Source of the DNA: Candidatus Gastranaerophilales bacterium
GTDB taxonomy: Bacteria > Cyanobacteriota > Vampirovibrionia > Gastranaerophilales > Gastranaerophilaceae
Direction: 5' to 3'
Assembly (NCBI GenBank): GCA_944324055.1
Contig: CALUUV010000001.1
Coordinates: forward strand, 1-63,032
DNA: 63,032 nt
The notes beneath the pieces were generated by a model. It saw only the letters and a program-made list of their open reading frames with translations, did no database searches and was not told the origin of the DNA. This document shows, piece by piece, positions 15,537 through 51,157 of this stretch; the first letter of the stretch is position 1; each line of letters starts with the position of its first letter. The translations under genes were made by a program, and so were the position numbers.

Positions 15537-15797
15537 GACCGTGCTCCACGGGGACATAGCGGACCTCTCGACCCGAACGCTTAGCGGGGTGCAGGGCCTA
15601 CTGTGAGGCTTGTAGGAGTGCTATCCAAGGGATTTGTTATTGATGATAACTTAATATATGATGGCGTAAAATGTCGAACCGTGTCAGGGTGGAAACACAG
15701 CAGCACTAAGGCAACCTTTACGGGTGTTGTATTATTAAGGGGGAGATGATAAGTCCTAAAGAAGTAGTTTTATTTGCCGATAGGTAGTGGCACGGTC
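15537..15797 (+). ncRNA. ffs: signal recognition particle RNA, long (Alu-domain-containing, Bacillus-type) form
   Basis: 5' GACCGUGC (15537-15544) pairs perfectly with 3' GCACGGUC (15790-15797), and a T run follows. The 5' text GACCGTGCTCCACGGGGACATAGCGG resembles the B. subtilis scRNA 5' Alu region as I recall it (GCCGTGCTAAGCGGGGAGGTAGCGG). The domain IV core GTGTCAGGGTGGAAACACAGCAGCACTAAGG resembles ATGTCAGGTCCGGAAGGAAGCAGCATTAAG. It lies in a 306-nt non-coding gap. Confidence 0.8.
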
Positions 15798-33071: not shown

Positions 33072-33388
33072 TTATTCTGTCTATTTTCTTCTCGTTTTAT
33101 GTAGTTGCAATCACTTTCAAGGCGTTTGTCTTCCATTGCATCAATAAGTTCTTGGATATCTTTAATTTGTCCAAGTTCAAAACCTACTTCTGCTAAAAGA
33201 ACACAATCATTACAAAGTCTATAATTTCCATATTGAATAGAACCAGCTAAACAAGCTTCTTCTCCACAAGCATCACATTGGAAAAATTCGTTTTCTGAAT
33301 CAGGATTATCATCAATATCGTCTTTTTTCATTTGTTCAACAACAAGTTGCATTTTTTTTACAACTTCTTCTTTTGATTTGTTCATCAT
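33068..33388 (-). CDS. hypothetical acidic zinc-ribbon protein
   Basis: 106 aa. CDACGEEACLAGSIQYGNYRLCNDC gives a CxxC...CxxC pattern. Its ATG overlaps the pdxJ stop by 1 nt (TAATG junction). Confidence 0.55.
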   Translation of the reverse strand: MMNKSKEEVVKKMQLVVEQMKKDDIDDNPDSENEFFQCDACGEEACLAGSIQYGNYRLCNDCVLLAEVGFELGQIKDIQELIDAMEDKRLESDCNYIKREENRQNN

Positions 33389-34101
33389 TATCCCTCAACT
33401 AATTCTTTCATTTCTTTAACTGCTTGTGCTAATCCAACAAATACCGCTCTTGCAATTATGCTATGACCAATATTTAATTCTACTAAATCTGGTATTTCGT
33501 GCATTCTTTTTACGTTTTCATAATTTAAACCGTGACCAGCATTAACTTTTAGACCTAAGGTTTGTGCAAATGTTGCAGCACCTTTTAATGCTTGGAATGT
33601 TTCTTCTTCTTTTTCTGTTCCGAAGTATTCTGAATACTGTCCTGTATGTAATTCAATAAATTGTGCTCCTGTTTTATATGCTGCAGAAACTTGAGTTATA
33701 TCAGGATCAATAAACATACTAACTTCGATTCCCTTTTCTACAAGAGGTTTTACAAAAGCAATAGCTCTATCTATTTGTCCAGCAACATCAAGGCCACCTT
33801 CTGTGGTTAATTCTTGTCTTTTTTCTGGAACAATACATACTGCATCAGGTTTTAGTTCTAGTGCAATTTTTTGCATTTCATCTGTCATTGCCATTTCAAG
33901 ATTTAATCTTGTTTTTGGTAATTGTCTAATTGCCTTTACATCTGCATCTTTTATATGTCTTCTATCTTCTCTTAAATGAGTTGTAATAGATTCAGCACCT
34001 ACATCTTTGCAAATTCTTGCGGCTGTAATAACATCAGGGTCTATTCCCCCTCTTGCATTTCTTAATGTTGCAACGTGATCGATATTAACTCCTAATAGCA
34101 T
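33388..34101 (-). CDS. pdxJ: pyridoxine 5'-phosphate synthase
   Basis: PdxJ text MLLGVNIDHVATLRNARG, THLREDRRHI, IELHTGQY and VNAGHGLNY. Start is set at the internal Met at 34101, 1 nt after the murT stop; the track ORF extends to 34191 through non-PdxJ text. Confidence 0.93.
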   Translation of the reverse strand: MLLGVNIDHVATLRNARGGIDPDVITAARICKDVGAESITTHLREDRRHIKDADVKAIRQLPKTRLNLEMAMTDEMQKIALELKPDAVCIVPEKRQELTTEGGLDVAGQIDRAIAFVKPLVEKGIEVSMFIDPDITQVSAAYKTGAQFIELHTGQYSEYFGTEKEEETFQALKGAATFAQTLGLKVNAGHGLNYENVKRMHEIPDLVELNIGHSIIARAVFVGLAQAVKEMKELVEG

Positions 34102-34102
34102 T

Positions 34103-35425
34103 TTAATCTCCTTTTTGATTAATGTGAAGTAATGCTGTATATGTAGGTAAAATAGTAATATTACTTCTGTCAGCTCCTTTTCCGCTAACAAATCTTACTG
34201 CTTCATCTATATTAGGTATTACTTTAACATTGTTTATTCCTGCATATTTTAATCTGACAGCCATATCATAGGCTCTTGTACCAGATGTGATGATTGTCTT
34301 TTTAGCTTCTCTTAATAATTCAAAATCTGTATCCCATAGCCAAGATACATCTCTACCATCAGCATAATTGTCATTGATGATTATTAATATATTAGAATTG
34401 TAATCAACAGTTTTTAATACTTCACTTGCTCCTGTTGGGTTTTTAATTAATTGAATTATAGCTTTTCTACCATTAATTTCTTTTATTTCACTTCTTCCAA
34501 AAGCTGATTGGTAAGTATCTAATGCTTTTTGTATATCGGTTATTCCTAATTCAAATGCTGTTGCAATTGCTGCAAGAGCATTATATGCGTTGTATAAACC
34601 TAATAAAGGAATTTTGAATACATAATTTTGTCCATTATAATTCATTTTTATTACAGAATAATCATCATAAATTACAACATCAGCAGAATATTTGCAATCA
34701 GGTCTTTTATATCCGCAATTACAGTAGTAGTGTCCTTGTTGAGCATAAAAACGATTAGTATATTGAAGCTCTCCTCCACACCAAGGACAATTTAATATTT
34801 CCATAGGTGCTTTAGATTCTATATTTTTATTATGGTATTCTACACTATTAAATCCATAATATATTGGCTTTTTATCTCCAAGAGGTCTGAAATTTACAAC
34901 TAGTGGATCATCTGCGTTTAAGATAAGTTGTAAATTCTTATTTTTATCAATTGCATTTTGTATTTTTTTCGCAGTTGTACTAAGTTCTCCATATCGATCT
35001 AGTTGATCTCTAAATAGGTTAGTAATTACTAAATAGTCAGATTGTATATTTTCATATAATTTTGCTAAATATGCTTCATCTGATTCGATAACAGCATAAT
35101 CATAACGCTTTAACGGAGATATTCCTAAAACAAATGTATTGGCAATCCCTGTAAGCATATTTGCTCCTTTAGAATTGTTAAGTACAGAATGTTTTGTATC
35201 TCTTAGAATATGTGATATTATCCCTGATGTTGTAGTTTTTCCGTTAGTACCAGTAATAGTTACGCATTGTTTCATGTATTTAGAAACTTCTTTAAGGAAA
35301 TCTGGCTCAATTTTTAAGGTAATCATTCCAATAAAAGATGTCCCAGATGTCTTCCCGTGTATTTTAATCATTAATGATAAGAATTTTGCGAGTATTAATA
35401 ATAAGTAAAATTTAATCCTTTTCAT
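34103..35425 (-). CDS. murT: lipid II isoglutaminyl synthase subunit MurT (Mur-ligase-like)
   Basis: Matches S. aureus MurT as I recall it. P-loop ITGTNGKTTTS and ITNLFRDQLDRYGEL. Cys4 ribbon CPWCGGELQY...YYCNCGYKRP. C-terminal DUF1727 text NDNYADGRDVSWLWDTDFELL. ATG at 35425 has SD GGAG; the track ORF begins at an upstream TTG. Confidence 0.88.
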   Translation of the reverse strand: MKRIKFYLLLILAKFLSLMIKIHGKTSGTSFIGMITLKIEPDFLKEVSKYMKQCVTITGTNGKTTTSGIISHILRDTKHSVLNNSKGANMLTGIANTFVLGISPLKRYDYAVIESDEAYLAKLYENIQSDYLVITNLFRDQLDRYGELSTTAKKIQNAIDKNKNLQLILNADDPLVVNFRPLGDKKPIYYGFNSVEYHNKNIESKAPMEILNCPWCGGELQYTNRFYAQQGHYYCNCGYKRPDCKYSADVVIYDDYSVIKMNYNGQNYVFKIPLLGLYNAYNALAAIATAFELGITDIQKALDTYQSAFGRSEIKEINGRKAIIQLIKNPTGASEVLKTVDYNSNILIIINDNYADGRDVSWLWDTDFELLREAKKTIITSGTRAYDMAVRLKYAGINNVKVIPNIDEAVRFVSGKGADRSNITILPTYTALLHINQKGD

Positions 35426-35507
35426 AAAATAGTACTCCAAGCGGATTTGCAATATTTATCAACTACATATATAATCATATAATAGTACAAAAAAGTAATT
35501 AGTAAAA

Positions 35508-36919: not shown

Positions 36920-36938
36920 TCCATAACTTCTTCTTTTT
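36901..36938. terminator. bidirectional rho-independent terminator
   Basis: Perfect 15-bp stem AGAAGAAGTTATGGA / TCCATAACTTCTTCT with a 4-nt loop and a T run. It spans the stop of the YtxH gene and touches the stop of the convergent HNH gene. Confidence 0.85.
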
Positions 36939-38289
36939 ATCCTTTTATATTTAGTGGTTCTGTTCTGTCAGGGATATATTTTTTGTAATTCGGATATTTA
37001 TTTCTTAACCTTGGAGGTAATGTTTTAAAAGCTTCTTGAGGAGGGATGTCATACTTAGAAATATCAACATCAATCCCATTCTTATGCAGGGTATCTTGAA
37101 GTACATATGGATACCATTCATAACCTTTAAGCTTACCTTTATAAATGTTTTTGATAATATCATTTACATATTTTTGAGAATTATCAGGTATATCAGGGTG
37201 CATTTTCATAAAAGCTTTAAGAGGTAAATTCCCTCTTTCTTCATTTCTTGCTCTACTTACAAGCATAAAGTTGTCAGCTTCGTTATCACCACCCATAGAA
37301 TCTGCTTCAATGTGTTCAACTGATGCAACTGATTGATTTAATAGTCTTTCTGTTATTTCTTTATCTGAACGATCGGCATATTTTATTACAAAAGCATTGA
37401 CGCTTGTATTTGATGTAGGTAATTCTCTTGCTATTTGTACTATATTTTTAAATTCATCATTATATTCTGGAATATATTGGTGTTTTAAATCTATTATTAA
37501 ATCAAATGGTGTTTTGCCGTCTTTAGCATGATTTAATGGTTCTGTTTCAAACCTTTCACCTGCTTCCGCTAAATCTGATAAACCATAAAATTTTCGATTT
37601 TTTAATAAATCTTTTTCTGTTTTATCTAATATGTCTTCGCATTGAAGCATTAAAAGTTTTTCAATAAATACTTTACGTTTGAATGAATGTTGATCTGTGT
37701 TTTCAATTAATATTCTTCTGCGCCCGTCTGCAACTTCATCGAGTACAAGTTTTCTATTTTTAGGAGAAATATTTTTTGCTGCATCCTCTATTTTATTAAA
37801 GATTTCTGTTTGTTCTTGCTGCAGTTTTTTTATACAATTTGGTTTTTGTTGTCTTAAAACTTTGGAAAAACTTATAAAATAATCTTTTTTTGTTTTATAT
37901 TCGAAGAATTTGTATACATCATGCTCTACAGGTAGCATTGATTTTTCATATTTTTTTAAATATCTTATTTTCTTTTGAGAATTATTTATTTGTGATAAAT
38001 CATGAGATATTTGTTCCATTTCTTGGAACGTTAATAATTTTATTCCACTATATGGGTCTGTAATATTTTTCAATCCTTTTAAGAATCTGCCATTAGATGT
38101 ATTATTTCTTCTTTCATACGAACCAAAGTGTAATAGATTTTGTGTTTTAGAAAAAGAATCTGTTTCTAATTTATTTCCAATCATTACAGCATTCTTGTTT
38201 ATGCTACATTTTATTGGTGATGTAGCATTTGCGTTGTTATTATTGTTACATATTAGTTTTGGAAATAAATTGAGCATAATAATCCACAC
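36937..38289 (-). CDS. hypothetical protein with C-terminal Cys-less His-Me finger (HNH/DUF1524-like) nuclease motif
   Basis: 450 aa. SVEHIEADSMGGDNEADNFMLVSRARNEERGNLP shows H...N...N spacing like Cas9-type HNH or DUF1524 modules. The preceding ~320 aa are K/N/E-rich with unknown fold. The true start is uncertain because no strong SD is present. Confidence 0.6.
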   Translation of the reverse strand: MWIIMLNLFPKLICNNNNNANATSPIKCSINKNAVMIGNKLETDSFSKTQNLLHFGSYERRNNTSNGRFLKGLKNITDPYSGIKLLTFQEMEQISHDLSQINNSQKKIRYLKKYEKSMLPVEHDVYKFFEYKTKKDYFISFSKVLRQQKPNCIKKLQQEQTEIFNKIEDAAKNISPKNRKLVLDEVADGRRRILIENTDQHSFKRKVFIEKLLMLQCEDILDKTEKDLLKNRKFYGLSDLAEAGERFETEPLNHAKDGKTPFDLIIDLKHQYIPEYNDEFKNIVQIARELPTSNTSVNAFVIKYADRSDKEITERLLNQSVASVEHIEADSMGGDNEADNFMLVSRARNEERGNLPLKAFMKMHPDIPDNSQKYVNDIIKNIYKGKLKGYEWYPYVLQDTLHKNGIDVDISKYDIPPQEAFKTLPPRLRNKYPNYKKYIPDRTEPLNIKG

Positions 38290-38334: not shown

Positions 38335-39147
38335 TTATATTTTAATATTTACAATTTCAAATAAATTTTCAATAGGGGTGTAGTAATTATTATCATATAG
38401 GGCTTTGAATAAATCATAAGTTTGTGGAGCAAGTTCTTTTGTTTTGTCTATGTCAATGTAGAGACCTTCAATAAATCTTGCGAATAATTCTGTTGGAGAT
38501 GAATAATATTTATTCATTTTATTAATTTTGCGAGTTATTGATGCTTGTTTTCTTTGGCAAGATTTTAGCTTTAGATATGATACAAATTCTTTAGGCATAT
38601 CAGGAAATTCTTGTTCAAGGTTAATGATTGAATATGTTTTGTAGCTAAACCAGTGTAAAATTTTTATTGCATCATATTTTACAAGATGTCTAGCTGCAGA
38701 ATTTTTACTATATTTTTGAAATTGTTTAAATTTTTCATTTCTTTTAAATTCAGGGTATTTATTCTTAATAATTTTTTCATGATATTTTATAGTATTTTTA
38801 ATATTTTCTTTTTGGATATAGAGCTTTTCTAAAGTAGAGTTTGCATCAACAAAGTGTGTAACTTTAATCAATTCATCATATATGTATTCATTATTTCTAA
38901 GAAATATTGGATTAAAGTCTTTGCATAATGTTTTTTTCTTGTATGTTATGTAATGAGCAAATTCGTGGATGAGTGTAGGTATTATACGTTCTTCTTTAAT
39001 ATCCTTTGATATATCAATTCTATTCACTCTAAAGAAACCTTGGTGTCCTAGAGCTTTTGTTTTTGTTCTTACATCAAGTCCGAGAGATTTAAAAAATAAA
39101 ACTATTTCTTTTTTCTTTTCGTTTATTCTGTTTCGTGTACAATCCAT
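38335..39147 (-). CDS. hypothetical HExxH-motif protein (putative Zn metallopeptidase-like)
   Basis: 270 aa. A single HEFAH motif (IPTLIHEFAHYITY) lies ~65 aa from the N-terminus and the rest is unrecognised. The only Met before the motif is at 39147, giving a 25-nt overlap with cutA. Confidence 0.5.
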   Translation of the reverse strand: MDCTRNRINEKKKEIVLFFKSLGLDVRTKTKALGHQGFFRVNRIDISKDIKEERIIPTLIHEFAHYITYKKKTLCKDFNPIFLRNNEYIYDELIKVTHFVDANSTLEKLYIQKENIKNTIKYHEKIIKNKYPEFKRNEKFKQFQKYSKNSAARHLVKYDAIKILHWFSYKTYSIINLEQEFPDMPKEFVSYLKLKSCQRKQASITRKINKMNKYYSSPTELFARFIEGLYIDIDKTKELAPQTYDLFKALYDNNYYTPIENLFEIVNIKI

Positions 39148-39513: not shown

Positions 39514-40899
39514 TTAGAATATTTTATTAGGGTTTAAAATGTTTTTCGGATCAAAAATATATTTGATTTTTTTCATATATTCTAAAGCTGTTTTATCAAC
39601 TGCCATTGGTAAATATTGTTTTTTTTCTGCCCCTATTCCATGTTCAGCAGATAATGTACCACCAAGAGAGATTGTAAGGTTGTATATTTCTTTTTTTGCT
39701 TCAATATAATTTTTATGCTCTTGTGGATTTTCTAGATTGAGTGCAATTTGAGGATGAACATTTCCATCTCCAACATGTCCTACAACACAAGTTTCTAGGT
39801 TATATCTACTACATATTTCATTTATTCCTTTAATTAATTTTGGAAGTTGAGAACGAGGAACGATAACATCATCTGTAACTACATCTGGTCTTAATTTTGC
39901 AGCTGCCGCAAAAGATGAACGTCTTGCAGTCCATATTTTTTCATATTCTTCATCTGTATTAGATACTTGAATATCAGAAGCTGATGATTTAATTAGAATT
40001 TCTTTTAGTTTTTTACCTTCTGTTTGCACAGATTCTTTAGTGCCATCTATTTCAATAATTAGAGCTGCTTCTTTATCTGTTCTTAAGTTTGCTGGATAAA
40101 ATTTTTCAACTGTTGTGATAGAGTTTTTATCCATAAAATCAATTGTTGATGGAAATATTTTTGAATCAATTATATTGTTAACTGATAATGATGCAGTTTC
40201 TATATCATCAAAATATGCAAGCATAACTTTAGCTGATTCTGGTTTTGGTATTAACTTTAAATTTGCTTCTACAACAATACCTAAAGTGCCTTCACTACCA
40301 ATAAATAGTTGTGTTAATGGGTAGCCTGTCGCATTTTTAATTGTGTTTCCGCCAGTTGTCATTAGTGTTCCATCAGCAAGAATTATTTTTAAACCTAAAA
40401 TATAATCTTTTGTTGTGCCGTATTTAAATGTTTTAGGACCACCTGCAGATTGTGCAATAGCACCTCCAATTGTTGATACTCTTAAATTTGAAGGGTCAGG
40501 TGGGAAAAATAACCCAATTTTATCAAGTTCTTTTTGTAAATCTCCAATTACGACTCCAGGTTGTACAGTTGCGGTCATATTAGTTTTATTGATATCTAAA
40601 ATTTTATTCATTTTAGAAAAGTTCATAACAATACCGCCAAAGTCTGGTAGGCAAGCACCAATTAGGTTTGTTCCAGCGCCTCTTCCAGTAACTGGAATAT
40701 TGTTATTATTTGCAAACTTCATTATTTTTTGAATTTCTTCAATAGTTTCTGGGAATATAACAATATCAGGTAGCTTATCAGAAGTTCTAGTGTTTGTACC
40801 ATCTTGAGAGTATACATAACACTCTTCCAAAGTTGATAAAATGTTATCTTTTGGTAATATTTTGCTTAATTCTGATGTTATTTTATTCTTCGTCAACAT
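39514..40899 (-). CDS. FAD-linked oxidase (GlcD / D-lactate dehydrogenase family)
   Basis: FAD-binding PCMH domain (PVTGRGAGTNLIGACLP) and C-terminal text GGTLSAEHGIGAEKKQY...DPKNILNPNKIF. No glcE/glcF-like partners are adjacent. The ATG lies inside the last 17 nt of the upstream giant gene. Confidence 0.88.
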   Translation of the reverse strand: MLTKNKITSELSKILPKDNILSTLEECYVYSQDGTNTRTSDKLPDIVIFPETIEEIQKIMKFANNNNIPVTGRGAGTNLIGACLPDFGGIVMNFSKMNKILDINKTNMTATVQPGVVIGDLQKELDKIGLFFPPDPSNLRVSTIGGAIAQSAGGPKTFKYGTTKDYILGLKIILADGTLMTTGGNTIKNATGYPLTQLFIGSEGTLGIVVEANLKLIPKPESAKVMLAYFDDIETASLSVNNIIDSKIFPSTIDFMDKNSITTVEKFYPANLRTDKEAALIIEIDGTKESVQTEGKKLKEILIKSSASDIQVSNTDEEYEKIWTARRSSFAAAAKLRPDVVTDDVIVPRSQLPKLIKGINEICSRYNLETCVVGHVGDGNVHPQIALNLENPQEHKNYIEAKKEIYNLTISLGGTLSAEHGIGAEKKQYLPMAVDKTALEYMKKIKYIFDPKNILNPNKIF

Positions 40900-43800
40900 A
40901 TGAAGTTAGTCTTTCAATATTTTTGTTTAATTTTGCTAATTGTTTATCTACACTATTTATCTTTTTATTAATTTGACTATTATCGTTTGCTTCTACAAGT
41001 TCTGTTAGTCTATTGATTTTTTCTTCAAGAATGTCAATTTTATTTTGTTGAGTATTGAATTTTTCTTCAATATTATCAAATATAGAATAGTCAAACTGAG
41101 TTGGCATTTCAATACTTCTAATCATTGCTTTTACATCTTCAATGTCTTCTAATTTATTAAGTTTTTGAGTTATTGTAGTAAGTGTTGCACCTGCACAATC
41201 AACCCATTCTGCAATTGATAATAATGATTGATTTACGATATTATTGTATGTTTTATTTCCTTCTAAAGTTCGTTCTATATTTTCAATTGATGTTTCAATT
41301 CCACTTAAATCATTATTTTCAATTAAGTTTTTAGTTCTTACATCTAAATCATCAATAACAAGTTTAAAGTTTTCAAGATTTTCTTTTAATAAATTTGAAG
41401 AATTTTCAGATGTAAGTAATAATTTATTTGTTCTTGTGCTTATACTTACAATATCTTCATTCATTTTACTAATGCTAGATGATACTTCTGTCATATCAGC
41501 TTGTGTTATTTGATTTTTAATATTCCCTACAACTAATACGATATCATCAACTTTTTTAGTAATATCTTCTAATTCTTCATTAGGAGAAACTTCTTGAAGT
41601 TCTTTCATTGCAATTCTCAATTTTGCAATATCAGATTCAATATCTTGTAAACTATATGTATAATCTACTTTTGAATCTCCTGATTGAATTGTTAATAAGT
41701 GCTTTTTAACTTCTTCAAATTCTTTTTGAAGGTTATCATTATTCGCAACAGACTCTAATTGTGTTTTTACTTCATCAAATTCTTTTTTGATAGTATTGTC
41801 TGTTACAGAGTCAATTTTTGATTTAACTTCTTCAAAACCTTTCTCAATTGAATTATCATTAATAGAGTCAATTTTGTTAGATAATTCATCAAAGCCTTTC
41901 TGAATTGAATTACCAGTAATTGAATCAATTTTGTCAGATAGCTTATCAAAACCTTTCTCAATTGAGTTATCTGTAATTGAATCAAGTCTTGTGTGTATTT
42001 CTTCAAAGCCTTTTTCAACAGAATTATCAACAACAAAATCAAGTTTTGCTTGAATGTCTTCAAATCCTTTGTTTAATTCATAATTATCAGATAAATCATC
42101 TAGTTTTTTATTTAATGAATCAAATTCTACTTTAATATCATTATTGTTTGATAAGTTATTAAGTAGTTCTTCCTTATTTGAATTTAGTTCATTAATTAGG
42201 TCTGCTTTAATGTTTTCAATTTCAGATTTTAAAGCATTAGATTTTTCTTGAACATAGTCAATGATTTCTTCTTGTTCAACTTCAAACGATATTTGATCAA
42301 GAATTTTCATTGTTTGAGTTAATATTTCTGATTTAAGATTAGATAATTGCTCTTTAATAATTTCACTATTAGATGCTTCATCTATTTTTTCGCTGAACTT
42401 ACTTAATAGATCTAAAATATTATCTTTAAGTATTTGATTAATATCGTCTATATTTGGTAAGTTATGTATGTCATCTATAGTGCTAAGAGTTTTAATCTTA
42501 TCTTTTTGTTCAAATATAGTATTTTTAATAATGTTTAATTCTTCAGCAAATGTATTTTCACCAAGTTCATGTACATTTGTGCTAATATTTTCAATTTTTT
42601 GTTCAATTGATTCAATATTAGATAATATTAATTTATCAGCATTTTCTGCATTAGTACTTGTGAAATCAATTCTATCAATTTTTTGCTCTAATAAATCAAT
42701 TTTTTCAAATTCATTTTTTATGATTTCTATTGTAGAACTGTGTGTTTGATTTATTTCGTTTTGAATGCTATTGATTAAAGATTCAACATATTCAAATTTT
42801 TCTTTTAATTCATTAACATTAGCTTTTGCTGAATTTGAAAGTTTATCAGTATTTGTAAATATTGCTGTTGAGATAGATATAAATTCATCTTTAATGATTG
42901 AAAGTTGATGTGTTGTATCTTCATCAATATTTGAATCAAGTTTCTTAATTTCTTTTGAAATATTTTCAAGTTGTGAGCTAATATTATTGAAGTTGTCTTG
43001 GTTTGAAAGTTGTTCTTTTAAATCTTCTGTTGTTGTAATGATTTGATTTAATTTATCATCAGAAGTATTAATTTGACTGGAAAGTTGATTTAACTCATTT
43101 ATAATACTTCGATTATTTTCTCCAAGTTTTTCGTTGAGAACTTCATAAATATTATCGAAATGTTTAGTAATATCATTGATAATAACATTTGATTTATTTG
43201 ATGAGTTATTTTCAATAAAATCATTAATATTATTTTGCATATTTAAAACTTCTGTTTTGAATGCTGCAAAATCATCATTATTAACGTTTTTACTTAAATC
43301 TTTAACTAAATTATTTAAAATATTTTCAATATTAATAACTTTGTTATTATTGATATCATCATTCTTTTCTGTATTATTCTTGAAGCTATTAATAATACTG
43401 ATTAGTTCACTCAATTTATTATCAGAATCATTTTTGAAACTTTCAATTTGATTGTTAATATTGAATTCGGAATTTTCTGTCAAACTAATTATATTTTCAA
43501 TAGAACTGAATAATTTTTCGATTGATTCATTTTTTAAATCTGATTGTTTATCTTCAAGGGTTGATAATATATTTTGGATACTATCAAATTTTGAAGAGAT
43601 AGTTTCGCAAATATTTATTTTATCATTATTAATGATTGTTGTTATACTTTGTAGTGCTGATTTTACGCCAGATAAATCTTCTTCGATTTGTCTTGTCGTA
43701 TTCTCATCAGATTTAGAAATCAAGTTAATAATATTATCGATAAGATTTATAATATTATTGTATCTTTCATTGTTTTGAGTATCTGTGTTTGAAATATCAG

Positions 43801-46800
43801 CTTTGTATTCTTCAAATTCAGTTTTAAAGATTTCGAATTTAGAATTTATATTATCGTGAACACAGTTAGTTTTTTCTATAATTGCTTGCTTAATGTCTGA
43901 AAAATTATTTTGTATTTCTGTAATGTATTTTTGTTGATTTTCATTAGAGTCATTAAGTTTTTGAATAATTGTTTCTTCTGAAAAATCTATTCTTTGAGGT
44001 AGTAATGCAATTTTTTCCTCAACATTATTTATTGATTCTTCTAAGATTGCTTTATATTCATCTGTTATATTAGATGTTAAATTTGAAATATATTTAATGT
44101 TATTTAGAATCTCTTGGATATTATTATTTGCATTGTTTTGTATAGATGTTCCAATAGATTCTAACTCTCTTAATAAGTTCTCTAGAGAATTTTTAATCTC
44201 ATCTACTACATTGGCATTATTTGAGATTATGTTTCTGTTGTTATTATCAAGAGAATTAATAATTGATTTTACTAATTCTTCTATTTCAGCTTTTTGTTCT
44301 TGGTTATTTTGTAAAATTGATTCTCTTGTAGAATTTATATTTTTATGAATATTTTCAAATCCAATGTTATTTGAATTAATTATCGAATTTGCAGTTTGTT
44401 CTGTTTTTTCATCAACAGCTTTTATTTCATATTTTAATGATTCAAAGTTTTCATTAAGATTTTGAGCTTGTACTTGTCCCATCAAATCTTCAGATGAAAG
44501 TTTTACTTGCTCAGTTAATTCTTCAATTTTTTGAGTAATACTTGCTTCTGAATTTTGTATATTACTACTAATATGATATTTTAATGAATCTTGGTTTTGT
44601 GATTCATTAAGCTTTGAACTAAAGTTATTTAGGTCTGTTTTTATAGTTGTTAATTCATCATTAATTTGTTTGTTGTTATTATTTAGTGTGTTTATTATTT
44701 CGCCTCTAGAATAATTTATGTTTTTGTTTATGTTATTTGTATTTTCAAGGCTTTGGTCATTTTCTTTGATTAAATTATTAACAATATCTCCAGTTATAGT
44801 TTTAATATCAGATGATATTGTATCAATTTTTTCTGATAATAAATCTGAATTTGTTGAGATATTAGAGTTTATCAAATCAGTTTTGTTTGATAGATTATCA
44901 TTTAAATCTTCGATTTGATTACCAATTTTGTCAGATTTTGCTTGTAGGAAATTGATTTTATCAACATTATCATTGTTTGATTGAGTAATTCTATCTGATA
45001 CTTCATTGAATTTTGATACAATATCTGAATCATTGTTAATGAAGTAATTTGCAAGCTTATCTGTTACAGTTTTTATGTCTTTTGATACGTTATCTAGTTT
45101 TTCTGTTAGTTCATTTGTGTGGTTTTGAACATTATTTGAAATACCATTGATAGAATCTTTTATTTCATTAGTCGTAAATGTAATTTTATTACTTAAATCT
45201 TCATTTACATTATTAATCCCTGTTAGTACAGCACTTTTAACTTCAAAAGCTCCATTTGCAAGATTATCAAGCTTTTCAATCCAAACATCGTTATTATCGT
45301 TAATATGTCCATTAACTTCTGATATTACATTTTTAATATCATCTGATAATTTAACAAGTTGGTTTCTTACAAATTGATTATTTTCTTCTGTTGTTTCTTT
45401 GTTAAATACTTCATTTTTTATTGTATTTATAGTGTCAGAAATAATATTTAATTTGTCACTAATTTCTGATTTAGATTCTCCAATGTTTTGGTTTAAGGCA
45501 TTAGATAAATCTTTAATATCATTATTTAATTCCCCAATTTGTTGCATTATACTACTATTGTTTTCTGATAATAGTAGAGATAAGTTATTGATAATAAATT
45601 TTATATCGGAATTAATTGTATCAATTTTATTGAAAGTATTTGTTTGTAAATCACTATAATCAATTTTTTCTTCAATTAAAGATAATTTTGCTTCAGTTTT
45701 TTCAATTTTATCTTGCATTAATGTTGTAAATTCTGAAATTCTTCCTGAAGTTTGGAATAAAAGTGTTGGAATTTCATTATTTAAATCATTGATTTTATCG
45801 TATAACTTATTGATACAAGTGTGAACATCGTCAGAGTCTTCTGTATAGATGTTTTTAAAATCTTCTGATAATGCAATAACTTGTTTATAAATTTGTGAAA
45901 TATTTAATAATATTTTTTCTGAATTATTATTATTTTCTGATGAAAGATCTGCTAATGTTGATTTTAATTGATTATCAAAAACATTTATTTTAGTTGTAAA
46001 ATCATTGGTAATTGATTTTGGTAATGAATTCAAGTTACTGTTTAAAGAACTTATAGAATCAGAGATTTCATTGATTTTGTTTGTTATTTTTTGAGTATTG
46101 TTTTCTGATAAAAGTATAAGTTCTGTTTTTAAATCACTAGCAATTGAGAATAGTGAATTAAGTTGTTCAATTAGCCCATTAACTGTTTCTTGTGAATTTT
46201 TCTCTCTAATAGTTGAATTAATGTTTATTAATTCTTGTTTTACATTTGTTATTGCATCTGTAAAAGTGGAAATTGTATTTGATGTATTATTATCAATTTT
46301 AGAACTTAGGCCATGAGAAAGTTCAGTGAAGTGTGTAATGTTGTTGATAATATTATTATAATTATCTTTATCAAATGTTGAGAATTCATGTTTGAAAGTA
46401 TCTAATTTAGAATTAACTTGATTTAATTGTTCATTAAAACTCTCCATAATAGAGTTAATAGAAGTTCTGTTTTCACTGCTAACTCTTTCTGTAGCTTGTT
46501 CAATAATTCCTTGTAAGTTATTATTTGCATAGTTAACAGAATCATTGATTTTTGCTAGATGAGAATTAAAATCTGCAAGATTTACAGCAGTAAGAATTCG
46601 TTTTAAATCTTGATTTGTTTCTAATAAATCATTACAAATGATATTAGTTTCGTTTCCAATATCATTAACAACATTCAATAACTCTGATTTGAAAAGTTTA
46701 AAATCAAAATTTTCTGTTGATGTTCTAACAACGCTTTCAAGATATTCTAATTGCGCAAGTATTTGTTTGCTTTTTTCATCAGAATTATTAATAATAACTG

Positions 46801-47656
46801 CTTTTACTTCATTAATAGCATTTATTGAAGTATTTACAACATCGTTAAGGTGGCTAATAGAAGTTCTATCTGCGGTGTTATCGATAGCTTCTTTTATTTC
46901 ATCGTTTTTAGTGATTAGGTTTAAAATTAGTTCTTTTGATTCATTAAAATCACCAATAGTTACTAATCTATTAATGCTATCATTAAATTCTTCATTCTTT
47001 TTATCAATCATTGAGATTGCAGAAAGAATTGTGTTAGAAGTTGCATGAATATCTTCAATAGACTTTCCATACTTATCAGCAAGATTGCTAGCCGCTAGTC
47101 TATCGAAACTAGATGCTAAATCTTTGAAGTTATTATTTATGTTTAAAATTATGCTTTCAAAACCGTTGTTAACTCTTGTTATATCAAATTTTAAAGCAGA
47201 AATATTTTTAATAATTTCATTTTTTTGAGTATCGTCAGCTCTTAACGATTCTAATCTTAAAGTAATTTCAGTTAATGCATCTTTTTGGGCAACTACTTCT
47301 TTTGAAAAAACGCTTAAATTTGTTGCAATAACATCAAATAATTTTTTAATTTCAGTTGATTTTATACTATCTTCATTGTTTTTAAGCAAAGTATTGATAG
47401 ATGTTTCAACTTCTGCAAACTTAGAAACAACAAATCCATGTCTAGTTTCAATATTTCTTTTAAGTTCATCAATTAACAATTTAATTAAATCAGCATTTTC
47501 ATCTAAATTAAGATTGTCTAATTTGTTGTTAATTGTTGTTAGTACTTTATCTATTCCTGAAAAATTTAAAACTCCTTGAGCTCTCATAGAGTTAATTAAG
47601 TTAGTTATTTTTTCAAAATTAGTTTTGATATCTTCAAGATTATTGATTTCTGCCAT
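40883..47656 (-). CDS. giant (2,257 aa) coiled-coil-rich protein of unknown function
   Basis: Single uninterrupted 6.77-kb ORF. It is N/I/E/K/S/L/D-rich amphipathic helical text throughout. By eye there is no signal peptide, TM span or catalytic motif. 19-aa tandem repeats lie near the C-terminus. Confidence 0.85.
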   Translation of the reverse strand: MAEINNLEDIKTNFEKITNLINSMRAQGVLNFSGIDKVLTTINNKLDNLNLDENADLIKLLIDELKRNIETRHGFVVSKFAEVETSINTLLKNNEDSIKSTEIKKLFDVIATNLSVFSKEVVAQKDALTEITLRLESLRADDTQKNEIIKNISALKFDITRVNNGFESIILNINNNFKDLASSFDRLAASNLADKYGKSIEDIHATSNTILSAISMIDKKNEEFNDSINRLVTIGDFNESKELILNLITKNDEIKEAIDNTADRTSISHLNDVVNTSINAINEVKAVIINNSDEKSKQILAQLEYLESVVRTSTENFDFKLFKSELLNVVNDIGNETNIICNDLLETNQDLKRILTAVNLADFNSHLAKINDSVNYANNNLQGIIEQATERVSSENRTSINSIMESFNEQLNQVNSKLDTFKHEFSTFDKDNYNNIINNITHFTELSHGLSSKIDNNTSNTISTFTDAITNVKQELININSTIREKNSQETVNGLIEQLNSLFSIASDLKTELILLSENNTQKITNKINEISDSISSLNSNLNSLPKSITNDFTTKINVFDNQLKSTLADLSSENNNNSEKILLNISQIYKQVIALSEDFKNIYTEDSDDVHTCINKLYDKINDLNNEIPTLLFQTSGRISEFTTLMQDKIEKTEAKLSLIEEKIDYSDLQTNTFNKIDTINSDIKFIINNLSLLLSENNSSIMQQIGELNNDIKDLSNALNQNIGESKSEISDKLNIISDTINTIKNEVFNKETTEENNQFVRNQLVKLSDDIKNVISEVNGHINDNNDVWIEKLDNLANGAFEVKSAVLTGINNVNEDLSNKITFTTNEIKDSINGISNNVQNHTNELTEKLDNVSKDIKTVTDKLANYFINNDSDIVSKFNEVSDRITQSNNDNVDKINFLQAKSDKIGNQIEDLNDNLSNKTDLINSNISTNSDLLSEKIDTISSDIKTITGDIVNNLIKENDQSLENTNNINKNINYSRGEIINTLNNNNKQINDELTTIKTDLNNFSSKLNESQNQDSLKYHISSNIQNSEASITQKIEELTEQVKLSSEDLMGQVQAQNLNENFESLKYEIKAVDEKTEQTANSIINSNNIGFENIHKNINSTRESILQNNQEQKAEIEELVKSIINSLDNNNRNIISNNANVVDEIKNSLENLLRELESIGTSIQNNANNNIQEILNNIKYISNLTSNITDEYKAILEESINNVEEKIALLPQRIDFSEETIIQKLNDSNENQQKYITEIQNNFSDIKQAIIEKTNCVHDNINSKFEIFKTEFEEYKADISNTDTQNNERYNNIINLIDNIINLISKSDENTTRQIEEDLSGVKSALQSITTIINNDKINICETISSKFDSIQNILSTLEDKQSDLKNESIEKLFSSIENIISLTENSEFNINNQIESFKNDSDNKLSELISIINSFKNNTEKNDDINNNKVINIENILNNLVKDLSKNVNNDDFAAFKTEVLNMQNNINDFIENNSSNKSNVIINDITKHFDNIYEVLNEKLGENNRSIINELNQLSSQINTSDDKLNQIITTTEDLKEQLSNQDNFNNISSQLENISKEIKKLDSNIDEDTTHQLSIIKDEFISISTAIFTNTDKLSNSAKANVNELKEKFEYVESLINSIQNEINQTHSSTIEIIKNEFEKIDLLEQKIDRIDFTSTNAENADKLILSNIESIEQKIENISTNVHELGENTFAEELNIIKNTIFEQKDKIKTLSTIDDIHNLPNIDDINQILKDNILDLLSKFSEKIDEASNSEIIKEQLSNLKSEILTQTMKILDQISFEVEQEEIIDYVQEKSNALKSEIENIKADLINELNSNKEELLNNLSNNNDIKVEFDSLNKKLDDLSDNYELNKGFEDIQAKLDFVVDNSVEKGFEEIHTRLDSITDNSIEKGFDKLSDKIDSITGNSIQKGFDELSNKIDSINDNSIEKGFEEVKSKIDSVTDNTIKKEFDEVKTQLESVANNDNLQKEFEEVKKHLLTIQSGDSKVDYTYSLQDIESDIAKLRIAMKELQEVSPNEELEDITKKVDDIVLVVGNIKNQITQADMTEVSSSISKMNEDIVSISTRTNKLLLTSENSSNLLKENLENFKLVIDDLDVRTKNLIENNDLSGIETSIENIERTLEGNKTYNNIVNQSLLSIAEWVDCAGATLTTITQKLNKLEDIEDVKAMIRSIEMPTQFDYSIFDNIEEKFNTQQNKIDILEEKINRLTELVEANDNSQINKKINSVDKQLAKLNKNIERLTSYVDEE
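41729..42070 (-). repeat. six in-frame tandem 57-bp (19-aa) repeats inside the giant gene
   Basis: Units are KGFEDIQAKLDFVVDNSVE / KGFEEIHTRLDSITDNSIE / KGFDKLSDKIDSITGNSIQ / KGFDELSNKIDSINDNSIE / KGFEEVKSKIDSVTDNTIK / KEFDEVKTQLESVANNDNLQ. The K codons of units 1 and 6 are exactly 285 nt apart. A degenerate seventh unit follows. Confidence 0.9.
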
Positions 47657-47692
47657 TTCTAAGTCCTATTTTGTATACAATTTCCCATTAGA

Positions 47693-50014: not shown

Positions 50015-50080
50015 ATAAAAAGTTGCAGAATAATATCCGTGTAGTTAATTTTTATATTATTTGATTATTGTGAGGTGTGT

Positions 50081-51157
50081 ATGTTCGTAAATTCTGTTAA
50101 TTTAGTAACACGTTCTAATGCTGTGCATTTTTCGTCTAAAAATAAAAAAAATGATAATGCAAATGCGAACCTACAAAATAAACCATCAAAGAATAATCAT
50201 TCTATGATGGTTGGTGCAACTGCGGTAAGTGTAATTGCAGTTGCGGGGCTTGCGATTGCAGGGCGTAAGGGGATGTTAGGTTCAAAAGTTCAAAAATTTT
50301 TAGGTGGTGCTTCTAAAAAAGTTGCTTCAAATCCTAAAAAGGAAACTATAAAACCTGAACATAAACCAGCTATGGGAACAAAACCAGTTGTGGAACAAAA
50401 GCCAGTTACCGAACAAAAACCGATTACTGAACAAAAAACAGTTACTGAACAAAAACCAGCTGCTGAACAAAAACCAGTTACCGAACAAAAAACGATTACT
50501 GAACAAAAACCGATTACTGAACAAAAACCGGTTACCGAACAAAAACCAGCTGCGGAACAAAAACCAGCTGCGGAACAAAAACCAGCTGCTGAACAAAAAC
50601 CAGCTGCTGAACAAAAAACAGTTACAGAACAAAAAACAGTTGCGGAACAAAAAACAGTTGCGGAACAAAAAAATATTTCCAAAGAGACAGAGGTAATTAA
50701 ACCATATAATTTAGAACATAAGGAAGCTAAATTTAGTCTTACTCGTAGTTCTGTTAATCCTAAAACTAAAAATATCGTTGATGAAGGGATAATGGTAGAA
50801 GATGGTGTAAAAACTTATACTGCTAATATAAAAAATAAAGATGGTGTAATGTTAAAAAGGGATGATTATAATTATCCTGAAGGTAAACATATTAGAACTT
50901 TCACATATGATGAATCTGGAACTTATGTAAAATCTGTTAAAGAATTCTCTCCAGAAACAGGAAAACCAACAAAAGAAACATTGTTTAGAAAAGACAAAAC
51001 AGTTGATTCAGTAGCAACTTTTGATGCTGAAACTGGTAATGTCTCTAAAATTCAATCTTATGCAGAAGATGGAAAAACTATGAAAATGAATGCTATAGTT
51101 GATCCAAAAACTACTCAAGCTAGAATTGGTAAACTCCCAGAATCTAATAAATCATAA
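50081..51157 (+). CDS. hypothetical single-pass membrane protein with a 16-unit K-[PT]-x-x-E-Q linker and a beta-rich C-terminal domain
   Basis: ATG at 50081 follows SD TGAGGTG. TM span MMVGATAVSVIAVAGLAIAG. A hexapeptide repeat array is followed by ~150 aa with recurring G-K/T-Y/V hairpin-like segments (DGVKTYTANIKNKDGVMLKRDDYNYPEGKHIRTFTYDESGTYVKSVKEF). Confidence 0.65.
   Translation: MFVNSVNLVTRSNAVHFSSKNKKNDNANANLQNKPSKNNHSMMVGATAVSVIAVAGLAIAGRKGMLGSKVQKFLGGASKKVASNPKKETIKPEHKPAMGTKPVVEQKPVTEQKPITEQKTVTEQKPAAEQKPVTEQKTITEQKPITEQKPVTEQKPAAEQKPAAEQKPAAEQKPAAEQKTVTEQKTVAEQKTVAEQKNISKETEVIKPYNLEHKEAKFSLTRSSVNPKTKNIVDEGIMVEDGVKTYTANIKNKDGVMLKRDDYNYPEGKHIRTFTYDESGTYVKSVKEFSPETGKPTKETLFRKDKTVDSVATFDAETGNVSKIQSYAEDGKTMKMNAIVDPKTTQARIGKLPESNKS
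50381..50668 (+). repeat. 16 perfect-phase tandem 18-bp repeats (AAA-MCR-RYT-RYN-GAA-CAA)
   Basis: I counted the units directly. They encode KPVVEQ, KPVTEQ, KPITEQ, KTVTEQ, KPAAEQ and similar. Four consecutive units encode KPAAEQ (two adjacent DNA-identical pairs, differing at one synonymous base), and the last two KTVAEQ units are DNA-identical. Confidence 0.95.

Follow-up and report, generated by a model that had tools for sequence, protein, structure and literature searches.

In the present study, we analyzed a 63,032-nucleotide stretch of contig CALUUV010000001.1 (GenBank assembly GCA_944324055.1, Candidatus Gastranaerophilales bacterium), hereafter referred to as the window, the largest gene of which encodes a helical protein of 2257 amino acids (aa). 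This giant protein represents a new, unnamed family, which we place in the loosely defined class of coiled-coil-rich structural proteins of bacteria, and it is restricted to the gut Gastranaerophilales (Melainabacteria), which are non-photosynthetic relatives of cyanobacteria. Four of its traits are unusual: its size, a hendecad rod with a bulky core, tightly conserved ends, and an invariant overlap with a metabolic gene. The explanation that we favor, at slightly less than even confidence, is that the protein may be a cytoplasmic, non-enzymatic structural scaffold or strut specific to the Gastranaerophilales, which is made of straight multi-helix bundles and resembles Scy and FilP without being homologous to them. 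A cytoplasmic location and filament formation are suggested by the lack of export signals, the head-rod-tail pattern of conservation, and the housekeeping context of the gene. The open reading frame (ORF) and the element that precedes it are as follows.

40883..47656, minus strand: giant helical protein ORF, ATG start, 6.77 kb, 2257 aa plus stop codon, uninterrupted
47664..47667, minus strand: AGGA Shine-Dalgarno-like element, 7 nt 5' of the giant-gene ATG (weak evidence, taken from the sequence itself)

An earlier note on this DNA, which was prepared by a model from the letters and their translations, had described one uninterrupted ORF that is by far the largest gene; the runner-up in the window is 1062 aa long. 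The composition of the product is as rich in a few residues as was claimed (in %, N 14.9, I 12.6, S 9.8, E 9.7, L 9.3, K 8.5, and D 7.8), and Pro (6 residues), Gly (37), Cys (5), and Trp (2) are scarce, with Ala at 3.1 %. The protein is very acidic (D+E 394 vs. K+R 225, net charge -169). The absence of export, membrane, and catalytic signatures, which had been judged by eye, was confirmed. The highest Kyte-Doolittle mean over 19 residues is 1.08, and a transmembrane (TM) helix is, therefore, not expected; signal-peptide features are missing from the N-terminus (MAEINNLEDIK...), which is acidic and has no hydrophobic h-region; and a motif search of the protein returned zero matches to Walker A (GxxxxGK[ST]), HExxH, and GYDxxEVD. 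Regarding the recurring segment L..KID.IS..I to which the note had drawn attention, its exact form occurs only once; relaxed forms number 7-10, where shuffled sequences would be expected to give fewer than one. No Rfam family or tRNA was found inside the giant gene, and promoter and terminator scans of this AT-rich DNA (window GC ~0.29) were uninformative, with 100 sites vs. 89 expected.

When the query was aligned by MAFFT to 19 representatives (<85 % identity over the N-terminal 470 aa), five regions were resolved. The earlier description of an end-to-end coiled coil applies only in a broad sense, and has to be replaced in its detail by these five regions with a rod of the hendecad type (period 3.62-3.64) and not of the heptad type.

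46577..47656, minus strand: N-domain, aa 1-360, with the motifs NSxRAQGxL, LFDxxATNLxVFSxEVxxQK, and NNGFxSIxLxxNxNF
42497..46576, minus strand: variable rod, aa 361-1720, amphipathic helix with a 3.62-residue period and 7/11/18/22/29 spacings
42257..42496, minus strand: conserved island, aa 1721-1800 (...LKSEILTQTMKILDQISFEVEQEEIIDYVQEKS...), defined by the alignment
41690..42256, minus strand: variable linker, aa 1801-1989, with lineage-specific 19-aa tandem repeats EKGFEEIxxKLDSITDNSI
40886..41689, minus strand: C-domain, aa 1990-2257, with the motifs YSLQDxExDIAxLR, DIVSISTRTNKL...DLDERTR, AEWVDxAG, and KLNKSIExxxSxVxE (alignment A2)

Identity to the query was averaged in 40-residue blocks across the 19 relatives, and the ratio of nonsynonymous to synonymous substitutions (dN/dS) was estimated by NG86 between the query and its five closest relatives, with dS saturated at ~1.1 and the ratios accordingly rough. 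Conservation is highest in the N-terminal 360 aa, a feature that the note had missed: identity is 30-63 % per block, alignment A1 has a mean column identity of 69 % with 58 invariant columns, and dN/dS (0.06-0.13) is the lowest of the regions compared. The last ~270 aa retain 32-67 % identity with a dN/dS of 0.13-0.19. Across the rod, identity falls to 9-20 %, indels are numerous, and dN/dS is 0.36-0.49. The ratio is below 1 in every region and lowest at the two ends. A distinct C-terminal domain, as proposed in the earlier note, is supported by this difference in conservation from the rod; in secondary structure it does not stand apart, because the AlphaFold2 (AF2) model of the C-module (558 aa, 20-sequence alignment) is also all-helical, at low confidence (pLDDT 54.5, pTM 0.23). 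The model of the N-domain (365 aa, 20-sequence alignment) is likewise all-helical (pLDDT 57.4, pTM 0.36), and both models were used for secondary structure alone, their tertiary packing being untrustworthy.

Regarding the segments between the rod and the C-domain, the island is kept in the distant members P0175, P0245, and P0268, and residues 1841-1960 of the linker are gapped in 67-93 % of relatives. The linker contains tandem repeat DNA at 41807-42070 (57 bp x 4.6, 19-aa units; TRF), and its local hydrophobic period of ~3.75-3.9 (19/5 = 3.8) is unlike the 3.62 of the rod. If this repeat forms a coiled coil, it would supercoil in a right-handed manner; AF2 draws one 112-residue helix here, with low confidence. 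In P0175 (2699 aa), N-domain positions ~245-365 are repeated in tandem 4-5 times at residues ~207-653, and a second copy of N-domain positions 159-363 is found at residues 1188-1391 (independent E-value 4e-28), from which it follows that rods grow, at least partly, by copying N-domain-like modules of ~100 aa.

According to the note, frameshifts or stops in independent assemblies would expose the gene as an artefact or as a decaying gene, a reading to which we give next to no probability. Eighty loci were fetched, 70 of which had a complete ORF from the conserved start, and 68 of these, which are from different species-level assemblies, encode intact ORFs of 1,791-2,867 aa (median 2,134) with conserved start, ends, and periodicity. 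The two others, L019 (1147 aa) and L040 (1514 aa), are shortened and have unrelated C-termini, which is what an artefact or decay would produce; they are probably frameshifts or chimeras, and the layout of L040, in which the GlcD-like gene, the usual downstream neighbor, lies 1765 nt beyond the premature stop, is consistent with a frameshift or sequencing error. Together with a dN/dS below 1 throughout, the 68 intact loci rule out an artefact or decay for the family and for the window copy alike.

A homologue search returned 498 proteins, the best 120 of which are 1,930-2,691 aa long; the few named homologues are 'Candidatus Gastranaerophilales' or mislabelled Melainabacteria metagenome-assembled genomes (MAGs). 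In a scan of one genome per GTDB species, the N-domain was encoded in 112 genomes. Record labels among the matches listed are 'uncultured bacterium', Gastranaerophilales/Gastranaerophilaceae, Melainabacteria, 'Vampirovibrio sp.', 'Cyanobacteria bacterium', and 'Acinetobacter sp.', the last of which is a known mislabel for such MAGs. The isolate names of carriers among these matches indicate an origin in the gut (human, rumen, goat, yak, and deer samples), and the GC of the window and its genes are in keeping with the Gastranaerophilales. In an exhaustive search of 1.84 billion representative proteins, the N-domain profile matched only 233 clusters (50 % identity) at E<=1e-3. Nearly all of the matches listed have the N-domain at the extreme N-terminus of proteins of 1,350-2,760 aa or their fragments, and in three it is shifted 200-350 residues inward. 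The long members share one architecture, which the distant P0175, P0245, and P0268 retain in full, including the C-terminal motifs. The query itself has every feature by which we delimit the family: the N-domain motifs at residue 1, a hendecad rod (1.3-2.2 kb-equivalent), the island, and the C-domain motifs ISTRTNKL, EWVD, and KLNKSIE. In the searchable library, we found no literature that links Gastranaerophilales or Melainabacteria to a giant helical protein, to giant proteins, or to a cytoskeleton.

The evidence on the nature of the rod comes from its periodicity. A Fourier analysis of the ILVMF pattern of the query gave one global peak at 3.62 residues with a power of 5.8, whereas the strongest of 200 shuffles reached 1.96. 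The heptad register for which the earlier note had recommended a prediction did not emerge, power at 3.5 being essentially nil over the whole protein and 0.03-1.3 in 150-aa windows (vs. 3-5 at 3.6-3.65). Among 68 homologues, the median best period was 3.645 (interquartile range 3.640-3.645), with a median power of 7.7 there vs. 0.26 at 3.5; in query and family alike, the rod does not show the 3.5-residue period with an a/d core and occasional stutters that characterizes canonical heptad coiled coils of the crescentin (intermediate filament-like) type. Autocorrelation of the query peaks at lags 7, 29, 11, 22, 58, and 18, with 29 and 58 as the strongest long-range spacings, and that of the homologues at 7, 11, 18, 22, 29, 51, and 58, with troughs at 21 and 28; BLOSUM self-similarity reproduces these lags. 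Since the troughs at 21 and 28 accompany peaks at 11 and 22, we read 29 as 7+11+11. The spacings are those of hendecads with interspersed heptads, and the median period agrees with 51/14 = 3.643, the family autocorrelation at lag 51 being 0.136.

The undistorted alpha-helix has 3.63 residues per turn (PMC9858780), and a stripe period of 3.62-3.64 is close to this pitch; therefore, the helices would pack nearly straight, without left-handed supercoiling. The stripe itself is narrow (~90-135 degrees) and made of Ile/Leu, its central bin consisting of 75 % ILVMF and 1 % Ala. Hendecad dimers such as those of Scy and FilP require Ala at the position that points to the axis, and bulky residues favor higher oligomers (PMC9858780). 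From the bulky core and the rarity of Ala, we infer bundles of three or more helices, and the rod probably assembles in this number of strands either between chains or by folding back on itself. Phase tracking revealed blocks of constant phase of 100-225 residues separated by phase jumps, as expected of a segmented rod.

The sequence of the rod drifts fast, while its length, periodicity, and helical phase are preserved. Gap lengths among 76 representatives, counted as unique events because a nearest-neighbor version was confounded by near-identical sequences that share events, peak at 4, 7, 11, 14-15, 18, 22, 25-26, 29, 33, 36, 40, 44, and 51 and dip between these values, and 46 % of gaps of 6-60 residues deviate by no more than 0.15 turn from a whole number of turns vs. 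29 % expected. This excess of in-phase indels supports selection for a continuous amphipathic register. By arithmetic (0.148 nm per residue), the extended rod (~1,360 residues) would measure up to ~200 nm and the whole chain ~330 nm. In the mechanism that we propose, the long amphipathic helices would pack as nearly straight, non-supercoiled, segmented bundles, the conserved ends would mediate self-association (head-to-tail or lateral), partner docking, or both, and the role of the rod would be that of a strut, spacer, or scaffold, similar to Scy/FilP and other bacterial cytoskeletal proteins rich in coiled coils.

The closest likeness is to Scy and FilP, which also have long non-heptad rods of hendecads with interspersed heptads, a pattern that the period of ~3.64 reproduces in the giant family, and which likewise have no enzymatic domains and have conserved terminal regions around the rod; they are cytoplasmic, as the giant protein appears to be. 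Scy is 1326 aa long and is said by Walshaw et al. (2010) to carry a 51-residue repeat; the giant protein is 1.7 times longer and comes from a different phylum. It shares no sequence homology with Scy or FilP, lacks the N-terminal DivIVA-like GYDxxEVD motif, and has no DivIVA Pfam match (none on aa 1-365 at E<=10). Hendecad rods are present in both Scy and FilP; the cores of these dimers are Ala-rich (PMC9858780), in contrast to the Ile/Leu core of the giant protein with 3 % Ala.

Besides Scy and FilP, SF-assemblin, the striated-fiber protein of algal and Giardia flagellar roots, forms a segmented coiled coil with a 29-residue repeat (PMC2119799) that recalls the query spacings of 29 and 58. 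However, it is a eukaryotic protein of ~30 kDa with no detected homology to the giant protein, and its 29-mer consists of four heptads and a skip residue, in contrast to the 7+11+11 of the giant family. Coiled-coil-rich proteins (CCRPs) are defined operationally by a high coiled-coil content and the formation of filaments or scaffolds (PMC7002697). Among these, crescentin, CypS, CeaR, and ZicK/ZacK share the coiled-coil richness and, in terms of phylum, a neighborhood in Cyanobacteria sensu lato; they are much smaller and mostly heptad-based, and homology to the giant protein was undetected. The term 'Melainabacteria' is absent from the main text of a survey of CCRPs in 364 cyanobacterial genomes.

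The claim that the protein fits no named family stood up to searches of Pfam, NCBIfam, PHROGs, PADLOC, the PDB, and Foldseek, all of which returned sub-threshold or compositional matches only. The two termini, which the note had proposed to search separately, gave nothing close to threshold in the family libraries and no confident match to a characterized family in Pfam, the PDB, or Foldseek. A PDB sequence search with the single protein and with profiles A1 and A2 found nothing significant, and Foldseek against the PDB with both low-confidence AF2 models gave 0 matches at E<=1e-3; its top non-significant matches (designed four-helix bundles, Sso2, ClyA, Avd, and BRIL) were treated as uninformative.

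These searches bear on two rivals, the first of which is that the protein is an atypical or degenerate form of a known coiled-coil machine, such as SMC/Rad50/ASRP, the tail of ZorA, a methyl-accepting chemotaxis protein (MCP) bundle, or a phage tape-measure or tail protein. We consider this to be very improbable. Sub-threshold matches to coiled-coil arms do exist: in NCBIfam, and in the arm regions only, ASRP scored 46, Rad50 33, and SMC 31 bits, far under cut-offs of 300-730; in PADLOC, a ZorA model reached E 7e-14 and LmuB 6e-9; and in PHROGs, the tail protein phrog_1204 matched weakly (1e-5). The ZorA alignments span profile positions 275-798 of models with 692-1063 positions, which in our reading is the long tail and not the N-terminal membrane part, and the PADLOC and PHROGs matches are read as coiled-coil cross-hits driven by composition. 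The giant protein has no Walker A motif and no TM/MotA part, MCPsignal was not among its Pfam matches at E<=1, tblastn of the N- and C-domains against 50,697 phage records gave zero matches, and housekeeping synteny is conserved across 68 species. With no ATPase heads, TM segment, MCPsignal, or phage context, membership in the SMC/Rad50/ASRP, ZorA, MCP, or phage-tail groups is effectively refuted.

The second rival, which we regard as quite unlikely, is a coat of the apolipoprotein, perilipin, or late embryogenesis abundant (LEA) type, in which helices with an 11-residue period would lie flat on a membrane, lipid body, granule, or another hydrophobic surface and would not bundle with one another. 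It arises from the best Pfam match of the whole protein, Apolipoprotein A1/A4/E (PF01442; 79.2 bits, E 4e-22), which is close to its gathering threshold of 90, is precomputed on most relatives, and was accompanied below threshold by DUF1664. The top, non-significant PDB sequence matches were ApoA-IV and apolipophorin III, and amphipathic helices with 11- and 22-residue spacings, which dominate the giant family, are common to it and the PF01442 domain. However, the score remains under the threshold, and the giant protein is bacterial and has only 6 Pro, such that Pro-punctuated 22-mers are absent. Helices on lipid surfaces typically have a wide hydrophobic face; that of the giant protein is the narrow Ile/Leu stripe described above. 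Its net charge of -169 disfavors binding to anionic bacterial membranes, and its conserved, non-repetitive end domains are a better fit for a scaffold.

Regarding the genomic context, the giant gene is located in a chromosomal housekeeping region, and its end overlaps the start of a gene for a flavin adenine dinucleotide (FAD)-linked oxidase, which is followed by a conserved string of genes.

39514..40899, minus strand: GlcD-like FAD-linked oxidase, 461 aa, Pfam FAD_binding_4 and FAD-oxidase_C
40883..40899, minus strand: 17-nt overlap of the giant-gene end and the GlcD-like start, with the ATG (40899-40897) within TAT-GTT (Tyr-Val) codons
39123..39449, minus strand: CutA1 homologue, member of the conserved gene string
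38335..39147, minus strand: HEFAH-motif protein of 270 aa, sub-threshold SprT-like match, zinc-protease-like motif
36937-38289, minus strand: ORF of 450 aa, weakly similar to HNH nucleases (IscB model NF040563 E 3e-4, phrog_2214 HNH endonuclease 2e-5)

The GlcD-like product scores 485 bits with TIGR00387, under the cut-off of 568. The identical 17-nt overlap, over Tyr-Val or His-Val codons, is found in 68 of the 70 species loci, and since the ATG is dual-coding, part of the conservation of S[YH]V near the C-terminus reflects this constraint. The giant and GlcD-like genes are probably translationally coupled in the main clade, and an overlap that is identical across the order suggests that the coupling of a giant structural protein with a FAD oxidase would be ancient. 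CutA is located within 3 kb downstream of the giant gene in 64 of the 70 loci. The gene for the HEFAH (HExxH) protein, which shares positions 39123-39147 with the end of cutA, is found no more than 4 kb downstream in 65 of them. In the main clade, the giant protein would be co-expressed with the GlcD-like FAD oxidase, CutA, and the HExxH protein. No functional logic is apparent between these neighbors and the giant protein; the linkage is conserved and unexplained. The 450-aa HNH-like ORF is present in three related loci only and was perhaps inserted recently where the conserved string ends. The upstream neighbor is variable, wecB, which is found here, being present in only 11 of 83 loci.

A second subfamily (P0245-type) of 1,680-2,430 aa has the same N- and C-modules, and in all six of its loci (L084-L089, corresponding to P0245, P0262, P0247, P0320, P0319, and P0317) it is located ~100 nt downstream of a uracil-DNA glycosylase (UDG) gene, without glcD. 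It is either a paralogue or an orthologue in other lineages. No assembly prefix common to UDG-linked and main-clade members was found; the contigs of L001 and L085, which derive from one sample, agree in GC (0.296 and 0.293), which is only suggestive of a shared genome. In L085, the last 14 nt of the P0245-type gene are shared with a gene for 274 aa that weakly matches prepilin N_methyl.

The context and the conservation of the ends also bear on the possibility that the giant protein is exported by a non-classical route (a type I C-terminal signal, a flagellar-type system, or another) and serves in the gut as a long, acidic fibril on the cell surface or outside the cell. Bacterial surfaces commonly bear giant, acidic helical proteins with repeats, rods of hendecads are known from surface stalks such as tetrabrachion and those of trimeric autotransporters, and the rod of the giant protein evolves fast and has lineage-specific repeats, similar to host-exposed proteins. 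The note had argued from the missing export signals that an intracellular protein was more likely than an adhesin, and we concur that an exported fiber is unlikely. The giant protein lacks a signal peptide, a lipobox, a TM segment, and any RTX, sorting, or anchor motif, Pfam returned no adhesin, SLH, RTX, or autotransporter match for the giant protein, and the conserved neighbors (FAD oxidase, CutA, and HExxH protein) do not include secretion genes. The conserved extreme C-terminus could in principle serve as a secretion signal; however, its conservation is partly due to dual coding with the glcD start, and the slow evolution of the N-terminal 360 aa is unusual for an exposed tip.

Several points nevertheless weigh against a cytoplasmic scaffold. 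A missing Sec signal is compatible with type I, flagellar-type, or other non-classical export, and to our knowledge no cytoplasmic filament has been described in the uncultured Gastranaerophilales. With PF01442 at 79 bits, just below 90, the amphipathic helices could conceivably coat lipids or other surfaces. The in-phase indel result may partly be produced by aligners, which favor register-restoring gaps in periodic sequences. Rod length differs by ~+/-20 % among species, which argues against a precise ruler, and both AF2 models (pLDDT 54-57) are too low in confidence to give a tertiary or quaternary structure. The scaffold remains the explanation that we prefer. In a bolder form, the protein would be a new type of cytoskeletal element that defines this lineage of non-photosynthetic cyanobacteria, in which straight, non-supercoiled hendecad bundles of 200-300 nm would polymerize via their conserved ends and organize shape, division, or polarity, with output stoichiometrically tied to the FAD oxidase by an ancient 17-nt overlap; this form we hold to be doubtful.

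Three other features of the window are recorded here.

50075-51157, plus strand: repeat-rich ORF of 360 aa, Cementoin (PF10511) and DUF2963 repeat matches, weak GltJ
34103-35452, minus strand: MurT-like Mur-ligase with a MurT_C domain, lipid II isoglutaminyl synthase models at 280-300 bits, under 800-bit cut-offs
15539-15795, plus strand: bacterial large signal recognition particle (SRP) RNA, RF01854, 75 bits

The MurT-like gene belongs to a cyanobacteria-related lineage and shares 89 nt with the longest pdxJ ORF (33388-34191); since the PdxJ domain starts only at residue 33 of that ORF, the two genes may in fact overlap less or not at all. The SRP RNA is the sole Rfam family in the window, in which no tRNA was found.

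Gastranaerophilales are common in human and animal guts and are uncultured, and we know of essentially no described cell biology for them. Should the giant protein prove to be no more than a generic structural protein, its annotation will at least have been corrected and its family defined. The conserved N- and C-domains are specific handles for antibodies, tags, and the marker-gene detection of this lineage, and the invariant 17-nt overlap with a metabolic enzyme gene is an unusual and testable operon feature. If the protein is a true cytoskeletal scaffold, it would be among the longest bacterial coiled-coil-rich proteins known to us, and would provide a clean natural example of a long straight-bundle rod with bulky-core hendecads, a poorly characterized class of coiled coil.

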